Source: Naegleria gruberi
Taxonomy: Eukaryota
Assembly: GCA_000004985.1 (NCBI GenBank)
Contig: GG739028.1
Direction: 5' to 3' (one strand)
Length of the DNA: 10,176 nt
Position 1 is the stretch's first letter. Every line of letters starts with the position of its first letter. The notes beneath the pieces were generated by a model. That model made no database searches, was not told the DNA's origin, and saw only the letters and a program-made list of their open reading frames with translations. Positions 590-10,176 of the stretch are shown in pieces. A program made the translations under genes and the position numbers.

Positions 590-713
590 GCCGATCACAA
601 TTTTCTTTCATCTTTCGCGTTTTATTTCTCCATTAAGGAAGTAACTAGAACTTCATAATTGGTAAAATTCCCAACTCCTCCAATTGTTTCAAATACGATG
701 CTTGGAAACGAGT
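590..713 (-). repeat. Dispersed copy, ~85% identical, of the last ~22 codons plus ~65 bp of 3'UTR of the RGS-domain gene; partner copy at 7293-7437 in the same orientation
   Basis: Direct alignment of 595-713 with 7298-7437. Both share tcacaattttctttcatctttcg...ttaaggaagt(a/g)actaga(a/c)cttcat(a/g)attggtaaaa(t/c)tcccaa...gtttc(a/t)(a/c)atacgatgcttggaaacgagt. The minus-strand translation of copy 1 gives TRFQASYLKQLEELGILPIMKF*; the real gene gives TRFQASYEKQLEKELGVLPIMKV*. Confidence 0.7.
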
Positions 714-716
714 GTT
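645..716 (-). pseudogene. Truncated 3'-terminal fragment of an RGS-domain gene paralog (24 codons including stop, preceded by an in-frame TGA); gene relic
   Basis: Minus-strand reading gives ...DRI*NTRFQASYLKQLEELGILPIMKF*. It is homologous to the C-terminus of the ORF 7366-7956. Homology ends abruptly at 713/714, where a 15-bp direct repeat (685-699 and 713-727, tgtttcaaatacgat) marks the breakpoint. Confidence 0.55.
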
Positions 717-786
717 TCAAATACGATCACTTTTTCAATCTCATCGTTAATGAACACAAGAATAGAAAACTTCCCAAAGTGATTTT

Positions 787-795
787 AAAAAAAAA
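787..795 (+). promoter_or_regulatory. A9 tract in the putative 5'UTR/core promoter, 18 nt upstream of the ATG at 813 (context attttaaaaaaaaacaa)
   Basis: Seen directly. The same attttaaaaaaaaa(aa)caa motif occurs upstream of the ATG at 3169, and a similar A9+cacc precedes the minus-strand ATG at 9168. Confidence 0.3.
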
Positions 796-812
796 CAAAG
801 AAACCTTATAAT

Positions 813-1268
813 ATGATTAATCTAGAGTGTGAAGTTGCACCTCTCTTGAGAAAGTTCATGTATCTTGCCAATATTATGGTGGCAGGATATGTGGCTTGTT
901 TCGCTCTATTCTTTCCTCAACAGGCACAATCTGAACTCTTCTATGGGAATTCACTTACTGATGATGGAAGTACCATAGCAGTAATGATTGTTGGATGTCA
1001 TTGGATGGCCATTGTCATCATTTCAATGTTGGGATTGTTCTTTCCATTACAATGTTCCATCGTTTTCGTTCATCAATTGATTTATAAGAGTTTGTACTTG
1101 TTGTTGGTTGCCTTGCCTGCCATGTGGATGAAGAGAGAGGTGCCACAACCCATGACCACACTCTTTGCTATTTGGGTGTTGTTGTTGCCTTTGGTCATTC
1201 CATGGCATTACTTGTTTCACAGTGAAGATAATATTTCAGCAAAACCTGTTTCAACAAAACAAGAATAA
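813..1268 (+). CDS. Small (151 aa) four-pass transmembrane protein of unknown family
   Basis: ATG in an A-rich context. Four hydrophobic segments (LANIMVAGYVACFALFF; STIAVMIVGCHWMAIVIISMLGLFF; LYLLLVALPAMWM; LFAIWVLLLPLVIPWHYLF). TAA stop at 1266-1268 overlapped by AATAAA at 1267-1272. Codon-like composition. Confidence 0.6.
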   Translation: MINLECEVAPLLRKFMYLANIMVAGYVACFALFFPQQAQSELFYGNSLTDDGSTIAVMIVGCHWMAIVIISMLGLFFPLQCSIVFVHQLIYKSLYLLLVALPAMWMKREVPQPMTTLFAIWVLLLPLVIPWHYLFHSEDNISAKPVSTKQE

Positions 1269-1272
1269 TAAA
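1267..1272 (+). promoter_or_regulatory. AATAAA polyadenylation-signal-like hexamer directly after the stop of the 813-1268 gene
   Basis: Sequence taataaacaaacaaactg. Confidence 0.3.
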
Positions 1273-1462
1273 CAAACAAACTGTAAAGTTCTTATGATTT
1301 CCATCGTAATCTCCTTTCTCTTCATTGAATAAGTTCCATCTATTCTTCTTGGATCAGTATGGAAACTTTTCCAAAGTAATAGAATGAGATTAAGAAACTT
1401 AAGCAATTCTTTGAGTTTTGTGAGTGCAGCAAAAACCCATTCCTTAGTCTTAAAACCAAAAA

Positions 1463-2348
1463 ATGCGCAAGCTTACCCACACTGTATTAAAATCACATTC
1501 TTCTGCAGTGATTAATGCTCGCAAAGTGGTGCCCTCTATCATCAAATCATCATCAATAATTCTTACAGATAATAGTTTGAATGTTTCATGGCATCAATGG
1601 AAATGTTTTCATACAACAAGTCCTTGGCAAAATCAATCCTTCACACGGGACGGTTCTTCGGTTCTTGGGGGAAAGCCACCAACAGAGACACCAGACAATA
1701 AATCCATCATCACCCTAGCATTGAAAGACTTTGACACCTGGTCGGTTGCACAAGTATCTGCTGTGTTGATGTTGAGCAAACAGGAAGGGGGTATCGGTTT
1801 GTCCGAGGAGAAGATCAAACCACTCTATGATTCTGCTTTTGATGGACTGGCTCTGAGCTATATTTCAACAATAGATTAGAAGGAAAGAGTGAAATCAGTT
1901 GTATCGAACATACCATCAAGACAATGACAAACAGTAAGGACTTTGCTTCAGTGCCGAAAACTACTTGCACAACTGTTGTTGAATGGGTTGCCACCAAGTT
2001 GACACCTAAACCATATCGGTTGTGGAACACTCAAGAGTTAGATGATTTTCTTAGCAAACCAAAAGCCGAAGGAGGTGCTGGATTGAGTGATGAGTCCGTG
2101 GTCTACCTCCATCGTGCCAAAATCGACAACCTAACACTTGCCCGAATTGTTACTGTCATTAAGGAAGAAAGAATGAAAGGCCTTACAGAAGAAGAATGTA
2201 TTGAGCTTGCCACAAAGATAATGACAAGCGATAAGGACTTTGCTTTAGTACCAGAATCTACTTGTAAAGCTGTCACTGAGTGGGTTGCTACCAAGTTGGC
2301 TCGAAAGGCTGATGAGAGAGGTACTTTCATTAACATACCCTCCGATTG
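1463..2348 (+). CDS. Protein with a basic, acid-free N-terminal presequence (possibly mitochondrial) and at least two SAM-like modules plus repeated KDF(A)xVPxxTCxxVxEWVATKL blocks. The frame shifts -1 near 1862-1880 and the gene is truncated by the N gap at 2349
   Basis: ATG at 1463 (aaaaaATGcgc). SAM-like motifs W-S-V-A-Q-V-S-A-V-L...FDGLAL and WNTQELDDFL...AKIDNLTL. Frame-2 ORF 1463-1879 and frame-1 ORF (open from 1843) are homologous on both sides of the junction (GKSEISCIEHTIKTMTNSKDFA vs GLTEEECIELATKIMTSDKDFA), so they form one gene with a 1-nt frame discontinuity. Confidence 0.55.
1915..2310 (+). repeat. Intragenic tandem duplication: ~95-bp blocks at ~1915-2010 and ~2212-2307 (period 297 bp, ~75% identity) encoding the repeated protein module
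   Basis: aaggactttgcttcagtgccgaaaactacttgcacaactgttgttgaatgggttgccaccaagttg aligns with aaggactttgctttagtaccagaatctacttgtaaagctgtcactgagtgggttgctaccaagttg. Confidence 0.65.
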
Positions 2349-2398
2349 NNNNNNNNNNNNNNNNNNNNNNNNNNNNNNNNNNNNNNNNNNNNNNNNNN
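2349..2398. other. Assembly gap (50 N, conventional unknown-size placeholder) interrupting the SAM-repeat gene
   Basis: Run of n. Confidence 0.98.
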
Positions 2399-3155
2399 TC
2401 ATTAGGAGCATTGTTCACTGTTGTTTGTGGTTTTTCTGCTCACATTACGTCCCAACAAGTGGTTTCATTGGAAGAACTGGTCTTGCCTTTGTTATGGTCC
2501 GCACTGTTAAACATCAATTGCCTTCTGTATAGAGGGGTTCTGATGGGTTGTTGTGAAATTCACTGAAAGTGATGTCAAATTTGTTTCCACTGTGATTCCA
2601 GAATTTGCCAGAGTTGGGATTTCTGCAAATCAAGGAGGAATAAGGTAACATATGATCGTGGTGTACTTGTTTTGCCAAGAGCTGTGAAATTCTCTTGACG
2701 TGACCAAAAAAACCCCTAATCAATCCCAGATGTCCAATTGTTGAGTTGATCTTTAGGATGACTTGAACAGTACAAAATGTTTCGTTTGGTTGGTTTGTCT
2801 GTCACTTTACGAAATTGCATTCATATCTTGCTCATGATGCTCCTCGTTGCCTCACTTGTTGAAGAGAAATTTATTTATCGAATCACACAGGACGCCAACT
2901 GCTTGTGTGCAAAGCAGATTGTTTTGGTAACGATGCTCGAATCTGATTGCAATCTTCATAGGAATGAGAGGATGAGTGTGAAGAAATTGCCAAATCATCA
3001 GCCAATGCATTTATTAAGCATACGACGAACTCAACTGAGATGCTGTTCTCTCACAGTTGGGCAAATGAATTAGTAACGATACTGCATGGCAAATAACAAC
3101 TCATTAATGGGAGTGGTGAGGTGGTGTTCAACAAAAACAAAGAGCAGCATATTTT

Positions 3156-3166
3156 AAAAAAAAAAA
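3156..3166 (+). promoter_or_regulatory. A11 tract immediately (2 nt) upstream of the ATG at 3169
   Basis: attttaaaaaaaaaaacaATGact; the same motif as at 787-795. Confidence 0.3.
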
Positions 3167-3168
3167 CA

Positions 3169-4359
3169 ATGACTCTCTCTACTATTGAGAGTTTATTTTC
3201 TGTGACAGGTAATGGACAAACAAACACACTTGTTTCTCCATCTGCAAGAATCAGCAGATACAAAACAATCAAAGACTTTGTTAACATCACCAAGAAACAT
3301 GGCAATAACAAAGAATTCACTCTAAAAGAATCTCCAATGCAGAAATATTGTTCCAAAGTGGGAGATACATTTTTGTGTCAACAAAGAAATAGCAAAGGTA
3401 ATTCAACAAGTGTGTGTGTTGATGTTGGTGTTGCCAATTTTTCTTCCATGATGTTTAGTGAATCTTTTTTAATGGTCCAACCAAAAAAACAAACAAACAA
3501 TGACACATCCTTGGTGGATTTATTGTCATTGTTCAACATGTTGACACATACATTGCGAGATGAGACAGTTTATGAATTGTTGTTGCAGCTTTTTTCAAAT
3601 GATATTGACTTATTCGAAACCTTTTGTAAAGATTTACAAAAGAGAAACGAAAAAGTATCTTCATTATTCATTGCTTTTTCTGTAAATGTGGTTTCATTTA
3701 ATTCTTACATCCTTTTGCAAAAAGATAGAATGCGAATTTCAGATAGTCTTTACCATGAGATTCGAATTAGATTCTTTCTTGAAAAATATTTACCTCCCTT
3801 AGATGACTTAAAAGACACAAGAAAAGAAAAAAACATAGAAGTGCTTGGCTTTTATGATGTAAATATTAGATCTGTCAGTTATGTAGCCAGTGTTCAGCAT
3901 GAAAAAGAGCAGATATATGAGGACATTGATGAGCCAGAGGATGCCTGTGAAGATACTTGTCAAAATATTTGTCAAGATAGCTGTCAGAATATTTCTTCAA
4001 ATCCTACACAAGACAACCAATCGTCCAACAGTGTTGGTGTTGCAATGAGTATGTCGAGTAATGTGTTGAATGAATCACCTGTGACGGTAAAAGGAAATAA
4101 GAAACAAACGACAGTCGTGTTTGTTAAAAATATTACAAAATTGGTAAAGAGTATTTTGAAATTGGAATTAATCGAAACCATCAATAGACAAACAAAAGGA
4201 AAAGTTATTTCTGAGAACGATATGGCTTTTTTGGAAAAAGCAACAAAAGAGGCCATTATGAGTTATGGAATGGATCAAAAGGGTCTTAATGGTTTGACAG
4301 TTTTGGGTGTATCTATGCGAGGTTCTAGAGTTTTTATGCTCAATGTCCCTTTTCAATAA
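3169..4359 (+). CDS. Hypothetical protein (397 aa from the first ATG) with an acidic/Cys-periodic segment (EDIDEPEDACEDTCQNICQDSCQNIS). Possibly the N-terminal half of the downstream TET/JBP gene, separated from it by a 1-nt frame discontinuity at ~4340-4365
   Basis: Long ORF (ORF track 3121-4359 starts at a GTG; first ATG is 3169, behind the A11 tract). The next ORF opens in another frame at 4329, before this one ends at 4359, with no intergenic space. No recognisable domain by eye. Confidence 0.5.
   Translation: MTLSTIESLFSVTGNGQTNTLVSPSARISRYKTIKDFVNITKKHGNNKEFTLKESPMQKYCSKVGDTFLCQQRNSKGNSTSVCVDVGVANFSSMMFSESFLMVQPKKQTNNDTSLVDLLSLFNMLTHTLRDETVYELLLQLFSNDIDLFETFCKDLQKRNEKVSSLFIAFSVNVVSFNSYILLQKDRMRISDSLYHEIRIRFFLEKYLPPLDDLKDTRKEKNIEVLGFYDVNIRSVSYVASVQHEKEQIYEDIDEPEDACEDTCQNICQDSCQNISSNPTQDNQSSNSVGVAMSMSSNVLNESPVTVKGNKKQTTVVFVKNITKLVKSILKLELIETINRQTKGKVISENDMAFLEKATKEAIMSYGMDQKGLNGLTVLGVSMRGSRVFMLNVPFQ
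3958..3993 (+). repeat. Imperfect 12-bp x3 tandem repeat (tgtcaaaatatt / tgtcaagatagc / tgtcagaatatt) encoding a C-x3-C-x3-C-x3 periodic cysteine motif
   Basis: Seen directly; Cys codons at 3945, 3958, 3970, 3982. Confidence 0.6.
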
Positions 4360-4364
4360 TTCCA

Positions 4365-5166
4365 TTGGCCCTATGGAATGGTAAGGAAAAAGATATTTTA
4401 TTTATATCAAACATTATAAGGGCAGAGCTTGATGAATTGCGTAAACAGGTAGTGGTTATTGAATACAATGGAAAAAATTACAAGTATGAATTAAAAAACA
4501 AACTTGTTACTGATTTGTCTGCGTTTAAATATTTAAATGGATGGAGCAGAATTAATTGTCCATTTTGTGATTGTCCAAACGCACATAGTTCAATTAAACA
4601 GGGATGCACTGTTGTGGAAAGGTCTGGTAACACAGAAATTTCAAATTGTTTAGGATTTGATCATACTGATTTTATAATTTGTTATTTACATTTACTCGAA
4701 AGAATCATTCAACATCTATTAAGGCTTAGTTTAGGTACAGCAGAAGAAAATTTCGATTCTATGGTAAAAGAAATTCAAATGGTTTCAACATTAAGAAACT
4801 TGATGTTTGAACCAGATGAAAATGGAGATTACAATTTATATCTCACTGGTGACCAATGTGAAGCTCTATTGCAAGGACGTGCTAAATTTTTTAAAAATTG
4901 TCCAAAACATATTCAAGAATTATGGAACGAAGGCAATCACATTCTTGATATATTCAAAAAAGGGCTGAGCAATGGCGATTATCAAGATTTCCAATTATCT
5001 CTTGATCGTTTCTTCCAGAAATTTAAAAAGTATTCAACAATAGGAAGCTGGTATGTTCACATAATTATGTATCATGGGGTTGCTTTGTTAAAAACGTATG
5101 GAGGCTTGTCAAAATGGAGTGCAGAAGGTTTTGAACATTTTCATAGACTTCTTGAATATATTTTGG
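4365..5166 (+). CDS. N-terminal/middle region of a TET/JBP-family dioxygenase protein (pre-gap part). Contains a Cys cluster NCPFCDCPNAH...C...C and a His-rich segment; function of this region unknown
   Basis: Continuous ORF (frame open from 4329; no ATG at its start, first codon in the track is TTG). Same frame as the post-gap catalytic domain, though the gap length is an estimate. Confidence 0.5.
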
Positions 5167-6044
5167 NNNNNNNNNNNNNNNNNNNNNNNNNNNNNNNNNN
5201 NNNNNNNNNNNNNNNNNNNNNNNNNNNNNNNNNNNNNNNNNNNNNNNNNNNNNNNNNNNNNNNNNNNNNNNNNNNNNNNNNNNNNNNNNNNNNNNNNNNN
5301 NNNNNNNNNNNNNNNNNNNNNNNNNNNNNNNNNNNNNNNNNNNNNNNNNNNNNNNNNNNNNNNNNNNNNNNNNNNNNNNNNNNNNNNNNNNNNNNNNNNN
5401 NNNNNNNNNNNNNNNNNNNNNNNNNNNNNNNNNNNNNNNNNNNNNNNNNNNNNNNNNNNNNNNNNNNNNNNNNNNNNNNNNNNNNNNNNNNNNNNNNNNN
5501 NNNNNNNNNNNNNNNNNNNNNNNNNNNNNNNNNNNNNNNNNNNNNNNNNNNNNNNNNNNNNNNNNNNNNNNNNNNNNNNNNNNNNNNNNNNNNNNNNNNN
5601 NNNNNNNNNNNNNNNNNNNNNNNNNNNNNNNNNNNNNNNNNNNNNNNNNNNNNNNNNNNNNNNNNNNNNNNNNNNNNNNNNNNNNNNNNNNNNNNNNNNN
5701 NNNNNNNNNNNNNNNNNNNNNNNNNNNNNNNNNNNNNNNNNNNNNNNNNNNNNNNNNNNNNNNNNNNNNNNNNNNNNNNNNNNNNNNNNNNNNNNNNNNN
5801 NNNNNNNNNNNNNNNNNNNNNNNNNNNNNNNNNNNNNNNNNNNNNNNNNNNNNNNNNNNNNNNNNNNNNNNNNNNNNNNNNNNNNNNNNNNNNNNNNNNN
5901 NNNNNNNNNNNNNNNNNNNNNNNNNNNNNNNNNNNNNNNNNNNNNNNNNNNNNNNNNNNNNNNNNNNNNNNNNNNNNNNNNNNNNNNNNNNNNNNNNNNN
6001 NNNNNNNNNNNNNNNNNNNNNNNNNNNNNNNNNNNNNNNNNNNN
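5167..6044. other. Assembly gap (878 N) inside the TET/JBP-like gene
   Basis: Run of n. Confidence 0.98.
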
Positions 6045-6455
6045 ATTCTTGAATCACGATTTGTTCCAATTAGTGCTACCAATTTCATGATCCCAGGAAA
6101 CAAGCATAGAATTTTAAAACCACACAAGGACAATCAGGATGTGGGATTGTGCATTATCTTTTATTTTGGAAATTACAATGCTCCATTGGAATTTGTAAAC
6201 AAGGGAAGCGTATTTAATACTGAGAGAGGAGATGTTCTTTTAATGCGAGGCTCTCATTTTCGGCATGTAGTTAAGCCTGTGGATAATGGTTTGTTGGAAC
6301 ATGTACATGACCCAATGAGAATTAGTGTTGTATTATTTGCACACAAAAGTTTGAAAATGAATCCATCTTATTTTCTAAACGCTGGTTCGGCCTTGAAGGC
6401 CCATGATGAAGACTTTCCTGAGAAAGCCAAGAAAAGAAAGAAAAAGAGAAAATAA
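6045..6455 (+). CDS. C-terminal catalytic double-stranded beta-helix domain of a TET/JBP-family 2-oxoglutarate/Fe(II) dioxygenase (NgTet-like), ending in a basic KKRKKKRK tail
   Basis: Motifs HRILKPHKDNQD (HxD iron ligands; H at 6123-6125, D at 6129-6131), GDVLLMRGSHFRHVVKPV (distal His at 6264-6266), and RISVVLFAHKSL (2OG-binding Arg at 6318-6320 followed by HK). From memory these nearly match Naegleria NgTet1 (HRIRKPHKDNLD...KHVV...WRIGLVYFAHK) and human TET2 (RLSLVFYQHKNL). TAA stop at 6453-6455 overlaps AATAAA. Confidence 0.8.
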   Translation: MLESRFVPISATNFMIPGNKHRILKPHKDNQDVGLCIIFYFGNYNAPLEFVNKGSVFNTERGDVLLMRGSHFRHVVKPVDNGLLEHVHDPMRISVVLFAHKSLKMNPSYFLNAGSALKAHDEDFPEKAKKRKKKRK

Positions 6456-6506
6456 AATTATTTTGTTTACTGTAGTTGTTTTTAACATGATTACAAAATT
6501 ATATAT

Positions 6507-7091
6507 TTGGAACCGGAAACCAGTTTTGACAACAAGAATATATTTGATAAAATAGTCGCTACACTAGTTTTTAATAGCTTACCTGGTAGTGTATTTATTC
6601 CAGAATCTGAAACTTTCCCAAGCTTTGATTATGCTATTATTATGTACAAAGAGAAATCATTAGAAATCTTTCTGAAACAAAGCACCATTTCTACTGTTGA
6701 ATCTCATTATTGTCATAGTAATGGCAAAACAGATGTGGATAATTTACTGGAACGTCTTTATGTTTTAAATAGAGAAGGAAAGGCAATGAAAAGGAAACAA
6801 AACGTTCCAGAACAATATCATTTCTCATTACTTGAATTGATACTTCATGGAATTGTTGGAAGTGAAGAAACCAAAGTTGAATTGTTACAAGCCAGAAAGG
6901 ATGATCCAAAGTTGATCAAAGATGGAAAACTTGAAAACTCAGTAACATATGGTGACGTAGAATTCACTTGGCATTACATTTACGAATCAGGTGTGGAAGA
7001 ACAATCTGTAAAGAATGTTAAGGAGAATGGTATACTTTTTAGAAATAGACAAGAAATTGAAGACCAAATGAAGATTTATTTTGAAAAATAA
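6507..7091 (+). CDS. Hypothetical protein (frame open from 6486; first in-frame ATG only at 6643, so the start is uncertain)
   Basis: Protein-like translation across the whole ORF (EPETSFDNKNIFDKIVATLVFNSLPGSVF...KIYFEK*). An upstream ATG at 6487 is in a different frame, so this may be another 1-nt frame problem. No domain recognised. Confidence 0.45.
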   Translation: MEPETSFDNKNIFDKIVATLVFNSLPGSVFIPESETFPSFDYAIIMYKEKSLEIFLKQSTISTVESHYCHSNGKTDVDNLLERLYVLNREGKAMKRKQNVPEQYHFSLLELILHGIVGSEETKVELLQARKDDPKLIKDGKLENSVTYGDVEFTWHYIYESGVEEQSVKNVKENGILFRNRQEIEDQMKIYFEK

Positions 7092-7365
7092 CATGATCAT
7101 CATTTTCAAACATTGTCAGAACATTTAGAATCACATTGGTGCAAAAAATTATAAGTTCATTAAATACATTTGTATCAGATAATGATTGACAACCACAGGC
7201 ACTTTTCGGTTAATGGAAAACATTAATGGATCAAATCCACTATCTTTCCCAAACATATTTGTTCTTGTTACTTCAGTTGTGAAGAGGCCAATGACGCTCA
7301 CAATTTTCTTTCATCTTTCGAATTTTAAGTGTTTCTCAATTATTTCAATAATATTAAGGAAGTGA

Positions 7366-7965
7366 CTAGACCTTCATGATTGGTAAAACTCCCAATTCCT
7401 TCTCCAACTGTTTCTCATACGATGCTTGGAAACGAGTATAATTATCCAACATGTTGTGTTCACAAGCTGTTTGAATTCTATCAAACATTTCAGATGTAAT
7501 TGCAAATATTGTTCGTTTCTTTGGTGAATCAGTTCCTGAAGGTGAGCCACTGGAACCTCTGATTGCACTTTCTCTCAAAGCTTCAAATGTTTTCATTATT
7601 TCTGGAATTCCAAAATCCTTTCTTGAAATATTCAATTCAAGAGGAGCTCCAAGTCGAATATATGTATTACAAATATTGTAAAATAATTCTCTTCTTTGTT
7701 TTTCTGATTTGATTGCTTTGAATTTTTCAATGGCGTTCCACATCATGACATCTTCACATGCAAAACACTTTTCTGAGAATTTCAGAAAGAGATCATTCCA
7801 CTTTTCATTCAGTAAAATCTTTCGAATATTACTTTCGGAATTCATTGTTTCAGATAGTTGAATGGAATTTGATTTTTGAGTTGTTTCAGAATTGTCTGTT
7901 TTTGTCAGTTCTGATTTGAATCTTTGCAGAATGAAAACAGGATATGTAAATGACACGAATGTATC
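7366..7965 (-). CDS. RGS (regulator of G-protein signalling) domain exon / C-terminal region of the membrane-RGS gene; RGS box approx 7396-7833
   Basis: Minus-strand translation has hallmark RGS-box motifs: LFLKFSEKCFACEDVMMWNAIEKFK...ELFYNICNTYIRLGAPLELNI...FDRIQTACEHNMLDNYTRFQAS. The frame is open 40 codons upstream of the first Met (to 7965) and equals the frame of the upstream 7TM ORF, suggesting a fusion. The 5' junction is unresolved. Confidence 0.8.
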   Translation of the reverse strand, partial: DTFVSFTYPVFILQRFKSELTKTDNSETTQKSNSIQLSETMNSESNIRKILLNEKWNDLFLKFSEKCFACEDVMMWNAIEKFKAIKSEKQRRELFYNICNTYIRLGAPLELNISRKDFGIPEIMKTFEALRESAIRGSSGSPSGTDSPKKRTIFAITSEMFDRIQTACEHNMLDNYTRFQASYEKQLEKELGVLPIMKV

Positions 7966-8100
7966 TCACATGCATCCAATTAAAATTGTAATTGTCCATG
8001 GGAAATAATAATCAACACTTTACAATAATTGTAAAAAATTACAAATATTCAAAAAACATACTATGAATTAATGATTGAGAATTGTGAAGCAACTCCATAC
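7922..8100 (-). other. Candidate intron (GTATGG...AAAG, 179 nt) joining the TM6 region to the RGS exon; very uncertain. An alternative is two separate genes, with the RGS protein starting at the ATG at 7845
   Basis: The only phase-compatible GT/AG pair found by hand that avoids stops (gives ...VLVIIL-L-FKSELTK...). The donor is non-consensus, the AAG acceptor is rare, and the better GTATGT at 8056-8061 gives an in-frame stop with every available AG. Confidence 0.2.
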
Positions 8101-9168
8101 AATATAATAACCAGCACCCAAAATACACTAATCACAACAACTTCAATCTTGACATTCCAAACATCTCTCTTTGTAAACAATGCAACAATGGAAACAATTA
8201 AGGAAATGAAAATATAAAAAGCTGCATATGAAATAAATACATATTGATCTGAAATAGTCCACAATTGCAATAATGTAATAAATCATAATGTGCAACGCCA
8301 CAATTAATCCATAGACCACAAAGATGAATTTAGTTCCTACAATGAATCTAAAGAGTGTAAATAATCTCTTTTCAAATATTTCCCATTTGGTTTTGTTTCT
8401 GAAAAGAATTTCCATATCCAATTGTTCATCTTGTAAAATTCCTGTAGAGCTGTCTTGTGTGGTTGATAATGAAAATGAGGACAAACTCTTTTGTTTTTCA
8501 ATATTGTCAGAGAGTCCACTTGATGATGATGTGTTTTCTCCAGTATTAGATTTAGCTGTTGATGAGCTAGTTGGATTTAGTTCAGTTTCGGTTGTTTCAG
8601 TAATTTGTTTAGGATTATCTGATGATATCGAATGACGCAGTTCATATTGTCTATTACCAATCCTCACTTTCAATTCATATAATTTTGTCAATATCAACAA
8701 TCTAATACATCTCAATATGACAGTATTCGAAAGTGCAGGCACAGCCAAATAATAGATTAGTGAAAATATGAAACATGGATAAATCTTTCGTCCAATTAAC
8801 ACTCTAGTCATTAATACGAAAGTATAGGTCCATCCAATAATTGCTCCCATGACCATCAATGCTGGATTCCTGGCAACCTGCAAATAATTCACCACTTGTT
8901 TGTGTTCCTTTTGGAGAATATGCAACTTTCTCAATTTATAAACTAAACCTCCAACCGAAACTAATAACAAGCTTGTGTGAAGGAACAACACAATAGCTGA
9001 AATAACAATGGCCGAAGTGGTGTCATCACACAATCCCTTCTCACTCTTGTTTCCTTGTGAAAGGAGGAGTGGATGACAGATCGTTGAATCATTTGTACTG
9101 GGATTCGAATAGTTAGAGACCAACAACGCATCAAATATTGCCGTAGGAAAGATCACTTTGGCAGACAT
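8064..9168 (-). CDS. Multi-pass (about 6-7 TM) membrane region of a GPCR-like/RGS-fusion protein with a long Ser/Thr-rich hydrophilic loop; contains a 1-nt frame discontinuity at ~8245-8285
   Basis: ATG at 9168-9166 behind aaaaaaaaacacc. Hydrophobic helices: SAIVISAIVLFLHTSLLLVSVGGLV; ALMVMGAIIGWTYTFVLMTRVLIG; IYPCFIFSLIYYLAVPALSNTVIL; KFIFVVYGLIVALHIMIYYIIAIV. Then, in the +1 frame (ORF 8061-8282), YVFISYAAFYIFISLIVSIVALF and VVVISVFWVLVIILYGVA. The main frame after 8245 translates to C/F/Y-rich junk and stops at 8143. Confidence 0.6.
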
Positions 9169-9422: not shown

Positions 9423-10176
9423 TTACATAAATAAAGTAGTTTGAATCAGTTTTTGGAGTTGCTTTTTGTTTTTCAAGTGATTGTTAATTATTTCAGCTCG
9501 CTCAGAGTCTTTTCCAATTGGGTTTTCAAAATAAACAGATTGTTTCTCAGATTCACTCCAAATAATGGCAAGAAAGCCATAACGTGTTGATTGCTCATTC
9601 ACTTCCTTCTTAAATTCCTCAATAGATGTTTTTGGGTTGATGGTAAGAATCAATTGATTTTGATATCTGAAACGTGTTTGCAATTCAAAATGATATAGTT
9701 GATTTGAGTCTAATAAGGCACATTTCATATTGTTAATTGATATTTTGATTTCAAGAGGTTTTGTTTTTGAAAACTTGTTGCCTTTGAAATAGTTCAAACT
9801 TGGGAAAATGGCACCTGACAAGTCACATTGGTTGAAACTGTTCTCCCAATCATCACTGAAACAATATCCAAACATATTACAGGATTCAAATTCACAATTT
9901 TCAAATTTAGCACCTGATTGCTTCCAAAATTCACAGTCTTTGAATAAGGTATTTACAAATACTTTTCCTTTCAAAGATTCTTGATCGAATGATTTCTTTT
10001 CAAATTTTAAAATTGGGGTACAGTTTCTGAACGTTGCATTTTCGGGATTGGAATTAGTGAAATCTATATTTTGAAAATCGCAATTTTCGAAACATGTATA
10101 TTTTAAATTGCATGAGGTAAGATTTGCTGCAGAAAAGTTTCTACAAGATCTGAATTGTGCACTCTCAAGATAGAAT
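9423..10176 (-). CDS. Pentapeptide-repeat protein, 5'-partial (N-terminus lies beyond the window end), with a ~130-aa non-repeat C-terminal region
   Basis: Minus frame is open from 10175 to the TAA at 9425-9423. Hand translation gives consecutive 5-residue units with a central F/L: CRNFS AANLT SCNLK YTCFE NCDFQ NIDFT ... FENCEFESCNMFGYCF. The ORF track's M at 9974 is a TTG, not the real start. Confidence 0.7.
   Translation of the reverse strand, partial: FYLESAQFRSCRNFSAANLTSCNLKYTCFENCDFQNIDFTNSNPENATFRNCTPILKFEKKSFDQESLKGKVFVNTLFKDCEFWKQSGAKFENCEFESCNMFGYCFSDDWENSFNQCDLSGAIFPSLNYFKGNKFSKTKPLEIKISINNMKCALLDSNQLYHFELQTRFRYQNQLILTINPKTSIEEFKKEVNEQSTRYGFLAIIWSESEKQSVYFENPIGKDSERAEIINNHLKNKKQLQKLIQTTLFM

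Follow-up and report, generated by a model that had tools for sequence, protein, structure and literature searches.

How does the 3′ end of an RGS gene come to lie by itself in the genome of Naegleria gruberi, with no RGS gene attached to it? The question is raised by a small scaffold of the N. gruberi NEG-M draft genome, which was analyzed over its whole length of 10,176 bp (the window) and in which the last codons and the 3′UTR of an RGS gene are found twice in the same orientation. The initial annotation had offered three readings of this repeat: a segmental duplication of the RGS locus followed by replacement, the insertion of a TET-containing block into an RGS 3′ region with a long target duplication, or the reuse of the fragment as a terminator/UTR module.

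Extent, coding content and junction of the orphan copy

Comparison of the window with itself, as the initial annotation had suggested, recovered the repeat with sharp limits on both sides. The orphan, copy A, at 587/590–713 matches the end of the resident RGS gene, copy B, at 7290/7293–7437 in direct orientation (BLASTN E ~1e-25). Self-BLASTN aligned 592–713 with 7295–7437 (E 2.7e-27) and, in a more sensitive search, 587–713 with 7290–7437 (E 2.3e-25), and a repeat scan returned three collinear direct pieces, 587–624/7290–7327 (87%), 632–679/7353–7400 (90%) and 675–713/7399–7437 (90%). The gapped local alignment comprises 111 matches, 11 mismatches and 21 gap columns, the gaps being one 3-nt in-frame indel and one 18-nt indel in the UTR. 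Identity is 91% without gaps and 78% with gaps, which makes the ~85% given earlier a fair figure, and the direct repeat itself is confirmed. Self-BLASTN of the window detected no DNA-level homology beyond 587–713 on either flank, and the sole further internal repeat is 1900–2001/2197–2298.

Within the UTR part, the 23-nt core (595–617) is perfectly conserved against an A/B divergence of 9%, although a perfect run of 23 nt is not unusual for a 122-nt alignment at 91% identity. Metagenome scans with the RGS alignment and with this 23-nt core gave no matches. The core starts with CACAAT, which was considered as a Transib-like heptamer and dismissed as coincidental, given the direct orientation of the two copies and the lack of an inverted partner. 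Near copy B, an imperfect inverted repeat (7262–7275 versus 7358–7371, ~11/14) brackets the RGS 3′UTR between a convergent 194-codon ORF and the RGS gene and is probably due to chance.

On the minus strand, copy A reads TRFQASYLKQLEELGILPIMKF and the resident gene ends with TRFQASYEKQLEKELGVLPIMKV; the TAG of copy A is aligned with the stop codon of the RGS gene, so that the stop is kept in both. When RGS paralogs were searched against the window by tblastn, the only match outside the resident gene was at 651–713. The last 22 residues of the four N. gruberi RGS paralogs match this segment with 86% identity for P0001 and P0002 (E 5e-7), 82% for P0003 and 68% for P0004. Copies A and B share 19 of 22 residues and are thus about as far apart as true paralogs in the same segment. 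Over the 66 coding positions, three substitutions affect third and four affect first or second codon positions, a small sample of seven that carries no signal of purifying selection. Two codons before the homology there is an in-frame TGA, the RGS domain (Pfam PF00615) is absent upstream of 713 on the minus strand, and neither RGS nor transmembrane-domain sequence was detected there at the protein level. Copy A is therefore a stump and not a gene. It was also considered as the last exon of a spliced gene, which is ruled out by the lack of an acceptor before the homology and of RGS exons upstream. Tblastn and alignment thus bear out the original description of an orphan RGS end of ~22 codons, stop codon and 3′UTR, with nothing homologous upstream of codon −22 and a preceding in-frame TGA.

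The duplicated 15-bp breakpoint noted earlier at 713–727 could likewise be verified: TGTTTCAAATACGAT is present in exact form (15/15) at 685–699 and at 713–727, and none of 200 shuffled sequences gave three matches for it. Its counterpart in copy B (7409–7423) differs at two positions, indicating that the extra copy was templated from copy A's own sequence. The inserted bases are thus an exact copy of a nearby flank. Snap-back or primer-realignment synthesis during end joining leaves such nearby-templated copies, and the 15-nt duplication has the look of a templated insertion made during this kind of repair. It resembles the templated insertions of alternative (polymerase-theta-mediated) end joining in being an exact direct copy of sequence 28 nt away, placed precisely at the breakpoint, and departs from them in that flanking microhomology is not assignable here, the pre-break sequence being gone. 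A simple replication-slippage duplication followed by a deletion would look the same.

Features of the 10,176-bp window (A, orphan copy; B, copy at the end of the resident RGS gene)
Feature	Position	Strand	Remarks
Third TM+RGS family member, N-terminus (MSFHHQPHDV...DSAVCHPLL)	1–141	−	Unannotated; cut off by the left scaffold end
Copy A, RGS 3′UTR-homologous part	590–644	−	23-nt core 595–617 identical to 7298–7320
Copy A, coding stump (TRFQASYLKQLEELGILPIMKF)	645–713	−	22 codons + TAG; no RGS sequence upstream
Exact direct copy of 685–699, 15 nt	713–727		Lies where RGS homology stops; breakpoint scar, read as a putative templated insertion
P0010 homolog, 5′ part (aa 1–292 of 768)	1463–2346	+	86–99% identity to P0010 (NAEGRDRAFT_49972); cut by the 50-N gap
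Assembly gap, 50 N	2349–2398		Between contig 1 (carries copy A) and contig 2
Predicted RAG1/Transib-like DDE transposase gene	3169–5166	+	Frameshifted near 4332–4365 relative to 99% twin P0008; 3′ end lost in gap
Assembly gap, 878 N	5167–6044		Between contig 2 and contig 3 (carries copy B)
TET/JBP dioxygenase gene, C-terminal 136 codons	6045–6455	+	N-terminal part in gap
Copy B, 3′UTR of resident RGS gene	7293–7365	−	18 nt longer than UTR part of copy A
Copy B, last 23 codons + TAG of resident RGS gene	7366–7437	−	
RGS-domain exon, resident gene	7366–8017	−	Pfam RGS E 1.5e-9; annotated part NAEGRDRAFT_54747 (P0002)
Canonical GT...AG intron, 44 nt (GTATGT...AAAG)	8018–8061	−	Joins transmembrane ORFs 8062–9168 to the RGS exon

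The scaffold, the RGS family and its neighbor

The window is a complete scaffold made of three contigs that were joined by scaffolding. Since copies A and B lie in different contigs with N gaps between them, their spacing of 6.6 kb is an estimate that depends on the scaffolding. The genes on each contig have their best twins on a separate scaffold (396 kb, 7.6 kb and 56 kb), and relative to these twins the window copies carry two defects, a frameshift in the transposase gene and a nonsense codon in the RGS gene. The automatic gene model P0009 (NAEGRDRAFT_76558, 741 aa, 1924–7088) is a chimera that spans both assembly gaps, in which a fragment of the P0010-like gene is combined with pieces of the transposase gene and with the 194-codon ORF, which is unrelated, and from which the TET gene is left out. 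With two gaps, a chimeric model, a frameshifted and a nonsense-interrupted gene, the scaffold is a patchwork, which calls for caution with any reading as an insertion flanked by repeats.

The resident RGS gene had been described as the real gene. It is indeed the RGS gene, to be read on the minus strand, and its ORF at 7366–7956 matches N. gruberi proteins, but the gene itself is interrupted: an in-frame TGA at 7966–7968 (ATG TGA GAT ACA; M, stop, D, T) replaces the tryptophan codon TGG of its 98%-identical twin P0001 (MWDT; NAEGRDRAFT_54553, on a 56,452-bp scaffold). Either a nonsense mutation (TGG>TGA) or an error in sequencing may be responsible, and the TGA explains why the annotated RGS model begins at a downstream Met. 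The reading frame spliced across the intron continues as ...INSYVDYYFPW, matching RVDYYFPW in P0006, and since splicing joins the transmembrane-rich ORFs to the RGS exon, the gene probably encodes a multi-pass membrane protein with the RGS domain as its C-terminus. Judging from the sequence, the Naegleria RGS proteins of this TM+RGS family are probably multi-pass membrane proteins with a C-terminal RGS domain, and the RGS models of ~200 aa in the databases apparently lack N-terminal sequence. At the left scaffold end, the third family member was recognized by 12 of 30 identical residues (E 9e-6), including DSAVCHPLL versus DSTICHPLL.

Copy A lies ~450 bp upstream of the start codon of this third member (start at ~141). 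The minus-strand features, taken from the left end, are thus the start of member 3, a ~450-bp spacer, stump A and, at a distance of another 6.6 kb, the B gene. This order corresponds to a head-to-tail array with A as the 3′ end of a member that has lost its body. For comparison, the next minus-strand ORF (9423–9974) ends ~255 bp upstream of the start of the B gene. The next ORF to the right of copy A (813–1268) is on the plus strand.

It is followed by the 5′ part of a homolog of P0010 (UniProt D2VJ56), whose remaining 476 codons are nowhere in the window; P0009 and P0010 were also among the matches listed for a concatenated 1,284-aa query of seven window ORFs. Identity to P0010 is uneven, 86% over aa 1–129 and 98.7% over aa 134–292, which suggests a recent gene-conversion tract or a mosaic. 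The internal repeat of the window mentioned above lies in this gene (102 nt, 77%), and the C-terminal part of P0010 contains a P-loop-like GPHGISKS motif. P0010 is encoded on the same 396,166-bp scaffold as the RGS paralog P0004 (NAEGRDRAFT_49971, D2VJ53), and the consecutive JGI identifiers, together with UniProt accessions that are three apart, make the two appear to be neighbors. Their GenBank protein identifiers differ by 82, which would fit opposite-strand neighbors in a strand-sorted submission of a scaffold with ~160 genes. Thus, an RGS gene appears to stand beside a P0010-type gene at two loci. Such a pairing is expected if A marks a former RGS gene and is otherwise an unexplained coincidence; by a rough estimate, one of ~5 family members would by chance fall within three genes of a given gene in ~0.2% of cases.

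A predicted transposase beside a TET/JBP gene

The initial annotation had further stated that the direct repeats bracket a 6.6-kb block (714–7292). The direct repeats stand, but the block is not one coherent unit, given the two gaps it crosses, the twins scattered over three scaffolds and the lack of terminal repeats. Its left part is the P0010-like fragment, its middle (3169–5166) is 99% identical to P0008 (834 aa), which is encoded on a 7,596-bp scaffold, and its right part contains the C-terminal 136 codons of the TET/JBP gene and the 194-codon ORF. The block genes are 98–99% identical to their twins, compared with the 9% divergence between A and B.

The TET fragment matches NgTet1 (5cg8/4lt5) with an E-value of 1.9e-15 over residues 213–325, with the HKD motif aligned, and hence has homology to the double-stranded beta-helix core with its HxD...H iron site; its match to Pfam Tet_JBP is weak (E 0.0025, below cutoff). 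For P0008 and its relatives, of which an exhaustive HMMER search found 28, Pfam gave no matches except for a Ulp1 protease domain on one distant member. This member, P0022 (1,290 aa, from a Logan contig), carries the Ulp1/SUMO-protease domain at its C-terminus (PF02902, E 1.8e-7), an accessory domain also known from other eukaryotic DNA transposases. Among the relatives, only those from Willaertia magna and N. gruberi (P0037) have an organism name, the rest being metagenome or assembly contigs. Near-identical copies are limited to two among 5.8 billion proteins.

The family alignment conserves two aspartates, CPxC, CxLH and an invariant Y-x-H-x4-H...E, the motifs expected of a CMCT-clade transposase family, in the 3169–5166 gene as well. 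Y629, H631, H636 and E656 are invariant, and the aspartates of MDG and [ST]DL are conserved in the full-length members, with the exception of P0016, which has a gap at the second aspartate. Searched against PDB sequences, the family profile had RAG1 as 11 of its 13 best-scoring matches, including the top ten (best E 0.0045), and aligned Y-x-H-x4-H...E with 'YFHKTLAH...SEGNES' of RAG1, the zinc-histidine/E962 region of that protein. The AlphaFold (AF2) model of P0008 has a core at residues 310–680 with a pLDDT of ~80–95, and all 45 Foldseek matches of this predicted model in the PDB with E<=1e-3 are either RAG1 (best 9.3e-13, TM 0.52–0.58 on target) or HzTransib from Helicoverpa (1.5e-7). Profile and predicted fold thus identify P0008 and the 3169–5166 gene as a putative RAG1/Transib-like transposase. 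A KDZ affiliation had been considered and was replaced by RAG1/Transib on the same evidence.

The combination of the two gene types is not confined to the window. On a Naegleria-like metagenome contig (L001, 5641–10925), a transposase homolog of 23% identity adjoins a Tet-like gene (NgTet1 match with E 2.7e-12); at a third locus of the family (L002), the neighbor is an LRR gene and not a TET gene. As for the marks of a mobile element, namely CAC...GTG inverted termini, 2–5-bp target-site duplications (TSDs) and multiple copies, the window yielded no termini and L001 no convincing ones. A window scan for CA...TG termini with TIR complementarity and 2–9-bp duplications returned only chance-level pairs (<=18/24, low-complexity).

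TET/JBP-carrying DNA transposons were reportedly described in fungi by Iyer et al. in 2014. For Naegleria, we found no description of a TET–transposase link in the open literature, although an earlier one may exist, for example in Iyer 2009, 2013 or 2014. The fungal TET-carrying transposons belong to the CMCT clade, with C(2)C/H(3-4)H motifs as in the Naegleria family (Kojima 2025, PMC12730594). Compared with the fungal elements (KDZ, Plavaka, ESTA, EnSpm; PMC12730594), the transposase of the block is similar in resembling RAG1, as reported for fungal ESTA. Unlike there, the host is a heterolobosean amoeba, termini are lacking, copy number is very low and the orientation of the TET gene differs between the two loci.

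Origin of the orphan copy

On balance, we lean towards the view that copy A, at 590–713 on the minus strand, no longer has a function and is what remains of the 3′ end of a decayed TM+RGS array member, a relic and not the footprint of an insertion. Of the three initial readings, we thus favor the first in its general form, a segmental duplication of the locus with later replacement, supported among other things by the array position and the apparent RGS–P0010 synteny. A family member most similar to the B/P0001 lineage would have been duplicated locally, and a double-strand break or deletion would then have removed everything upstream of codon −22. Error-prone end joining would have rejoined the end to the sequence now at 728, copying 15 nt from 28 nt away (685–699 to 713–727) in a polymerase-theta-type templated insertion, after which the stump may have drifted neutrally to ~9% substitutions and two indels. 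The direct-repeat geometry follows from A and B both being 3′ ends of family members in the same orientation. Observed in the window are the homology with its sharp limits, the retained frame and stop codon, the 15-nt copy, the third family member and the mixed nature of the intervening DNA; we infer the order of events, the repair pathway and the P0004/P0010 adjacency.

Copy A resembles relic pseudogenes left by tandem or segmental duplication and subsequent deletion, being a short dead piece of a family with the orientation of nearby intact members, a divergence at the level of paralogs and a sharp deletion junction. It differs from them in that only 22 codons and the UTR survive, that the duplication unit cannot be traced past the transcript end and that even the intact neighbor, B, has a premature stop codon in this scaffold. 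The main weakness of the relic model is the 3′ side, where the homology also ends sharply (587–590/7290–7293), close to the expected end of the transcript, so that a second, unrelated boundary is needed at the distal end of the UTR. Moreover, the identity of copy A to B/P0001 (86%) exceeds that to P0004 (68%), the apparent neighbor of P0010, and copy A is therefore not simply the twin of the P0004 gene.

A single event would explain both sharp ends if the 3′ end of an RGS transcript or gene, 125–145 nt long, had been captured as filler during double-strand break repair at a site that never had an RGS gene; such a patch could have been templated by RNA or be a 5′-truncated retrocopy. From the stop codon to the distal end of the homology there are 55 nt in A and 73 nt in B, which places this end near the presumed poly(A) site and, in A, ~25 nt past AATAAA. 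The 15-nt templated copy fits a repair junction. Like 5′-truncated processed pseudogenes, copy A is confined to the transcript's 3′ end and stops close to where a poly(A) site is expected, but it has neither a poly(A) tail nor a flanking target duplication: GGCTTTATTTTC follows the end of the UTR, and on the minus strand the UTR homology is succeeded by GGCTTTATTTTCTAATC, without an A-run. A captured 3′ end would also leave the position in the array upstream of a family member and the apparent RGS–P0010 synteny as coincidences, and we judge it distinctly unlikely. The linkage of A and B could, on the other hand, be a product of the assembly, with copy A real and the contigs being misjoined, divergent or low-coverage haplotigs of three loci. 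The two gaps that separate the copies, the best twins on a different scaffold for each contig, the P0010-like gene that stops at the first gap with the rest of its codons missing from the window, the frameshifted and nonsense-bearing window copies and the chimeric model P0009 all speak for such a misjoin. Still, scaffolding relies on mate pairs, the three larger scaffolds may just terminate at the locus, and copy A is inside one contig and hence unaffected, so that we regard an artifact as unlikely. As to the module proposed initially, in which terminal codons and UTR would be kept as a terminator, polyadenylation or regulatory element of a neighboring gene, the perfect UTR core and the retained stop codon and reading frame are compatible with it. 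The core is ordinary at this identity, however, no minus-strand gene upstream of A could use the element, the ORF at 813–1268 being on the other strand, and there is no RNA structure (z-scores +1.0 and +2.1), Rfam match or tRNA. With neither a fold or match in the UTR nor a gene placed to use it, we give this proposal almost no credence.

The insertion reading, by which transposase/TET DNA entered an RGS 3′ region with a target duplication of ~125 bp, or an element captured a fragment of a host gene, draws on the direct repeats that flank the block and on the transposase-like gene within it, with its predicted fold like RAG1 (E 9e-13) and HzTransib (E 1.5e-7), beside the TET gene. In addition, fungal TET genes ride related CMCT-clade transposons (PMC12730594), and the second, Naegleria-like locus pairs both gene types. 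However, plausible ends show no TIRs or 2–5-bp TSDs, and the repeats are 125–145 bp long, in place of short repeats of 2–10 bp flanking TIRs. CMCT/Transib elements generate duplications of 2–5 bp, not ~125 bp, abutting 5′-CA...TG-3′ inverted termini (PMC12730594). Direct repeats around a clade transposase-like gene and a TET/JBP gene are what copy A and B have in common with the TSDs of this clade (EnSpm/CACTA, Mirage, Chapaev, Transib), which are, however, identical when new and located at inverted termini (PMC12730594), whereas A and B are 9% diverged and have no termini. The left third of the block is apparently syntenic with the neighbor of an RGS paralog elsewhere, the block spans two gaps, its genes are far closer to their twins than A is to B, and the transposase has only two near-identical database copies, the window copy being frameshifted. 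For lack of termini, and in view of the gaps, the scattered twins, the divergence mismatch and the P0010 synteny, we find no support for the long target duplication of the initial annotation and consider the insertion reading very improbable. Even smaller is the probability we assign to A and B being an activity footprint of a TET/JBP-carrying RAG1/Transib-like transposon, through an aberrant insertion or repair duplication of ~125 bp or the capture of a host fragment. If true, it would be the first RAG1/Transib-lineage TET-plus transposon seen acting outside fungi.

Read as a relic, the stump is one more unannotated remnant in a draft protist genome and of little import by itself, but it documents local birth-and-death turnover in the TM+RGS family together with one repair junction. 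The part worth pursuing is the pairing of transposase and TET gene, which recurs at a second, highly diverged locus. If this pair is mobile now or was so once, the transposon–TET partnership seen in fungi would also apply to a remote lineage of eukaryotes, and NgTet, structurally the best-studied family of small TET enzymes, would gain a transposon context.
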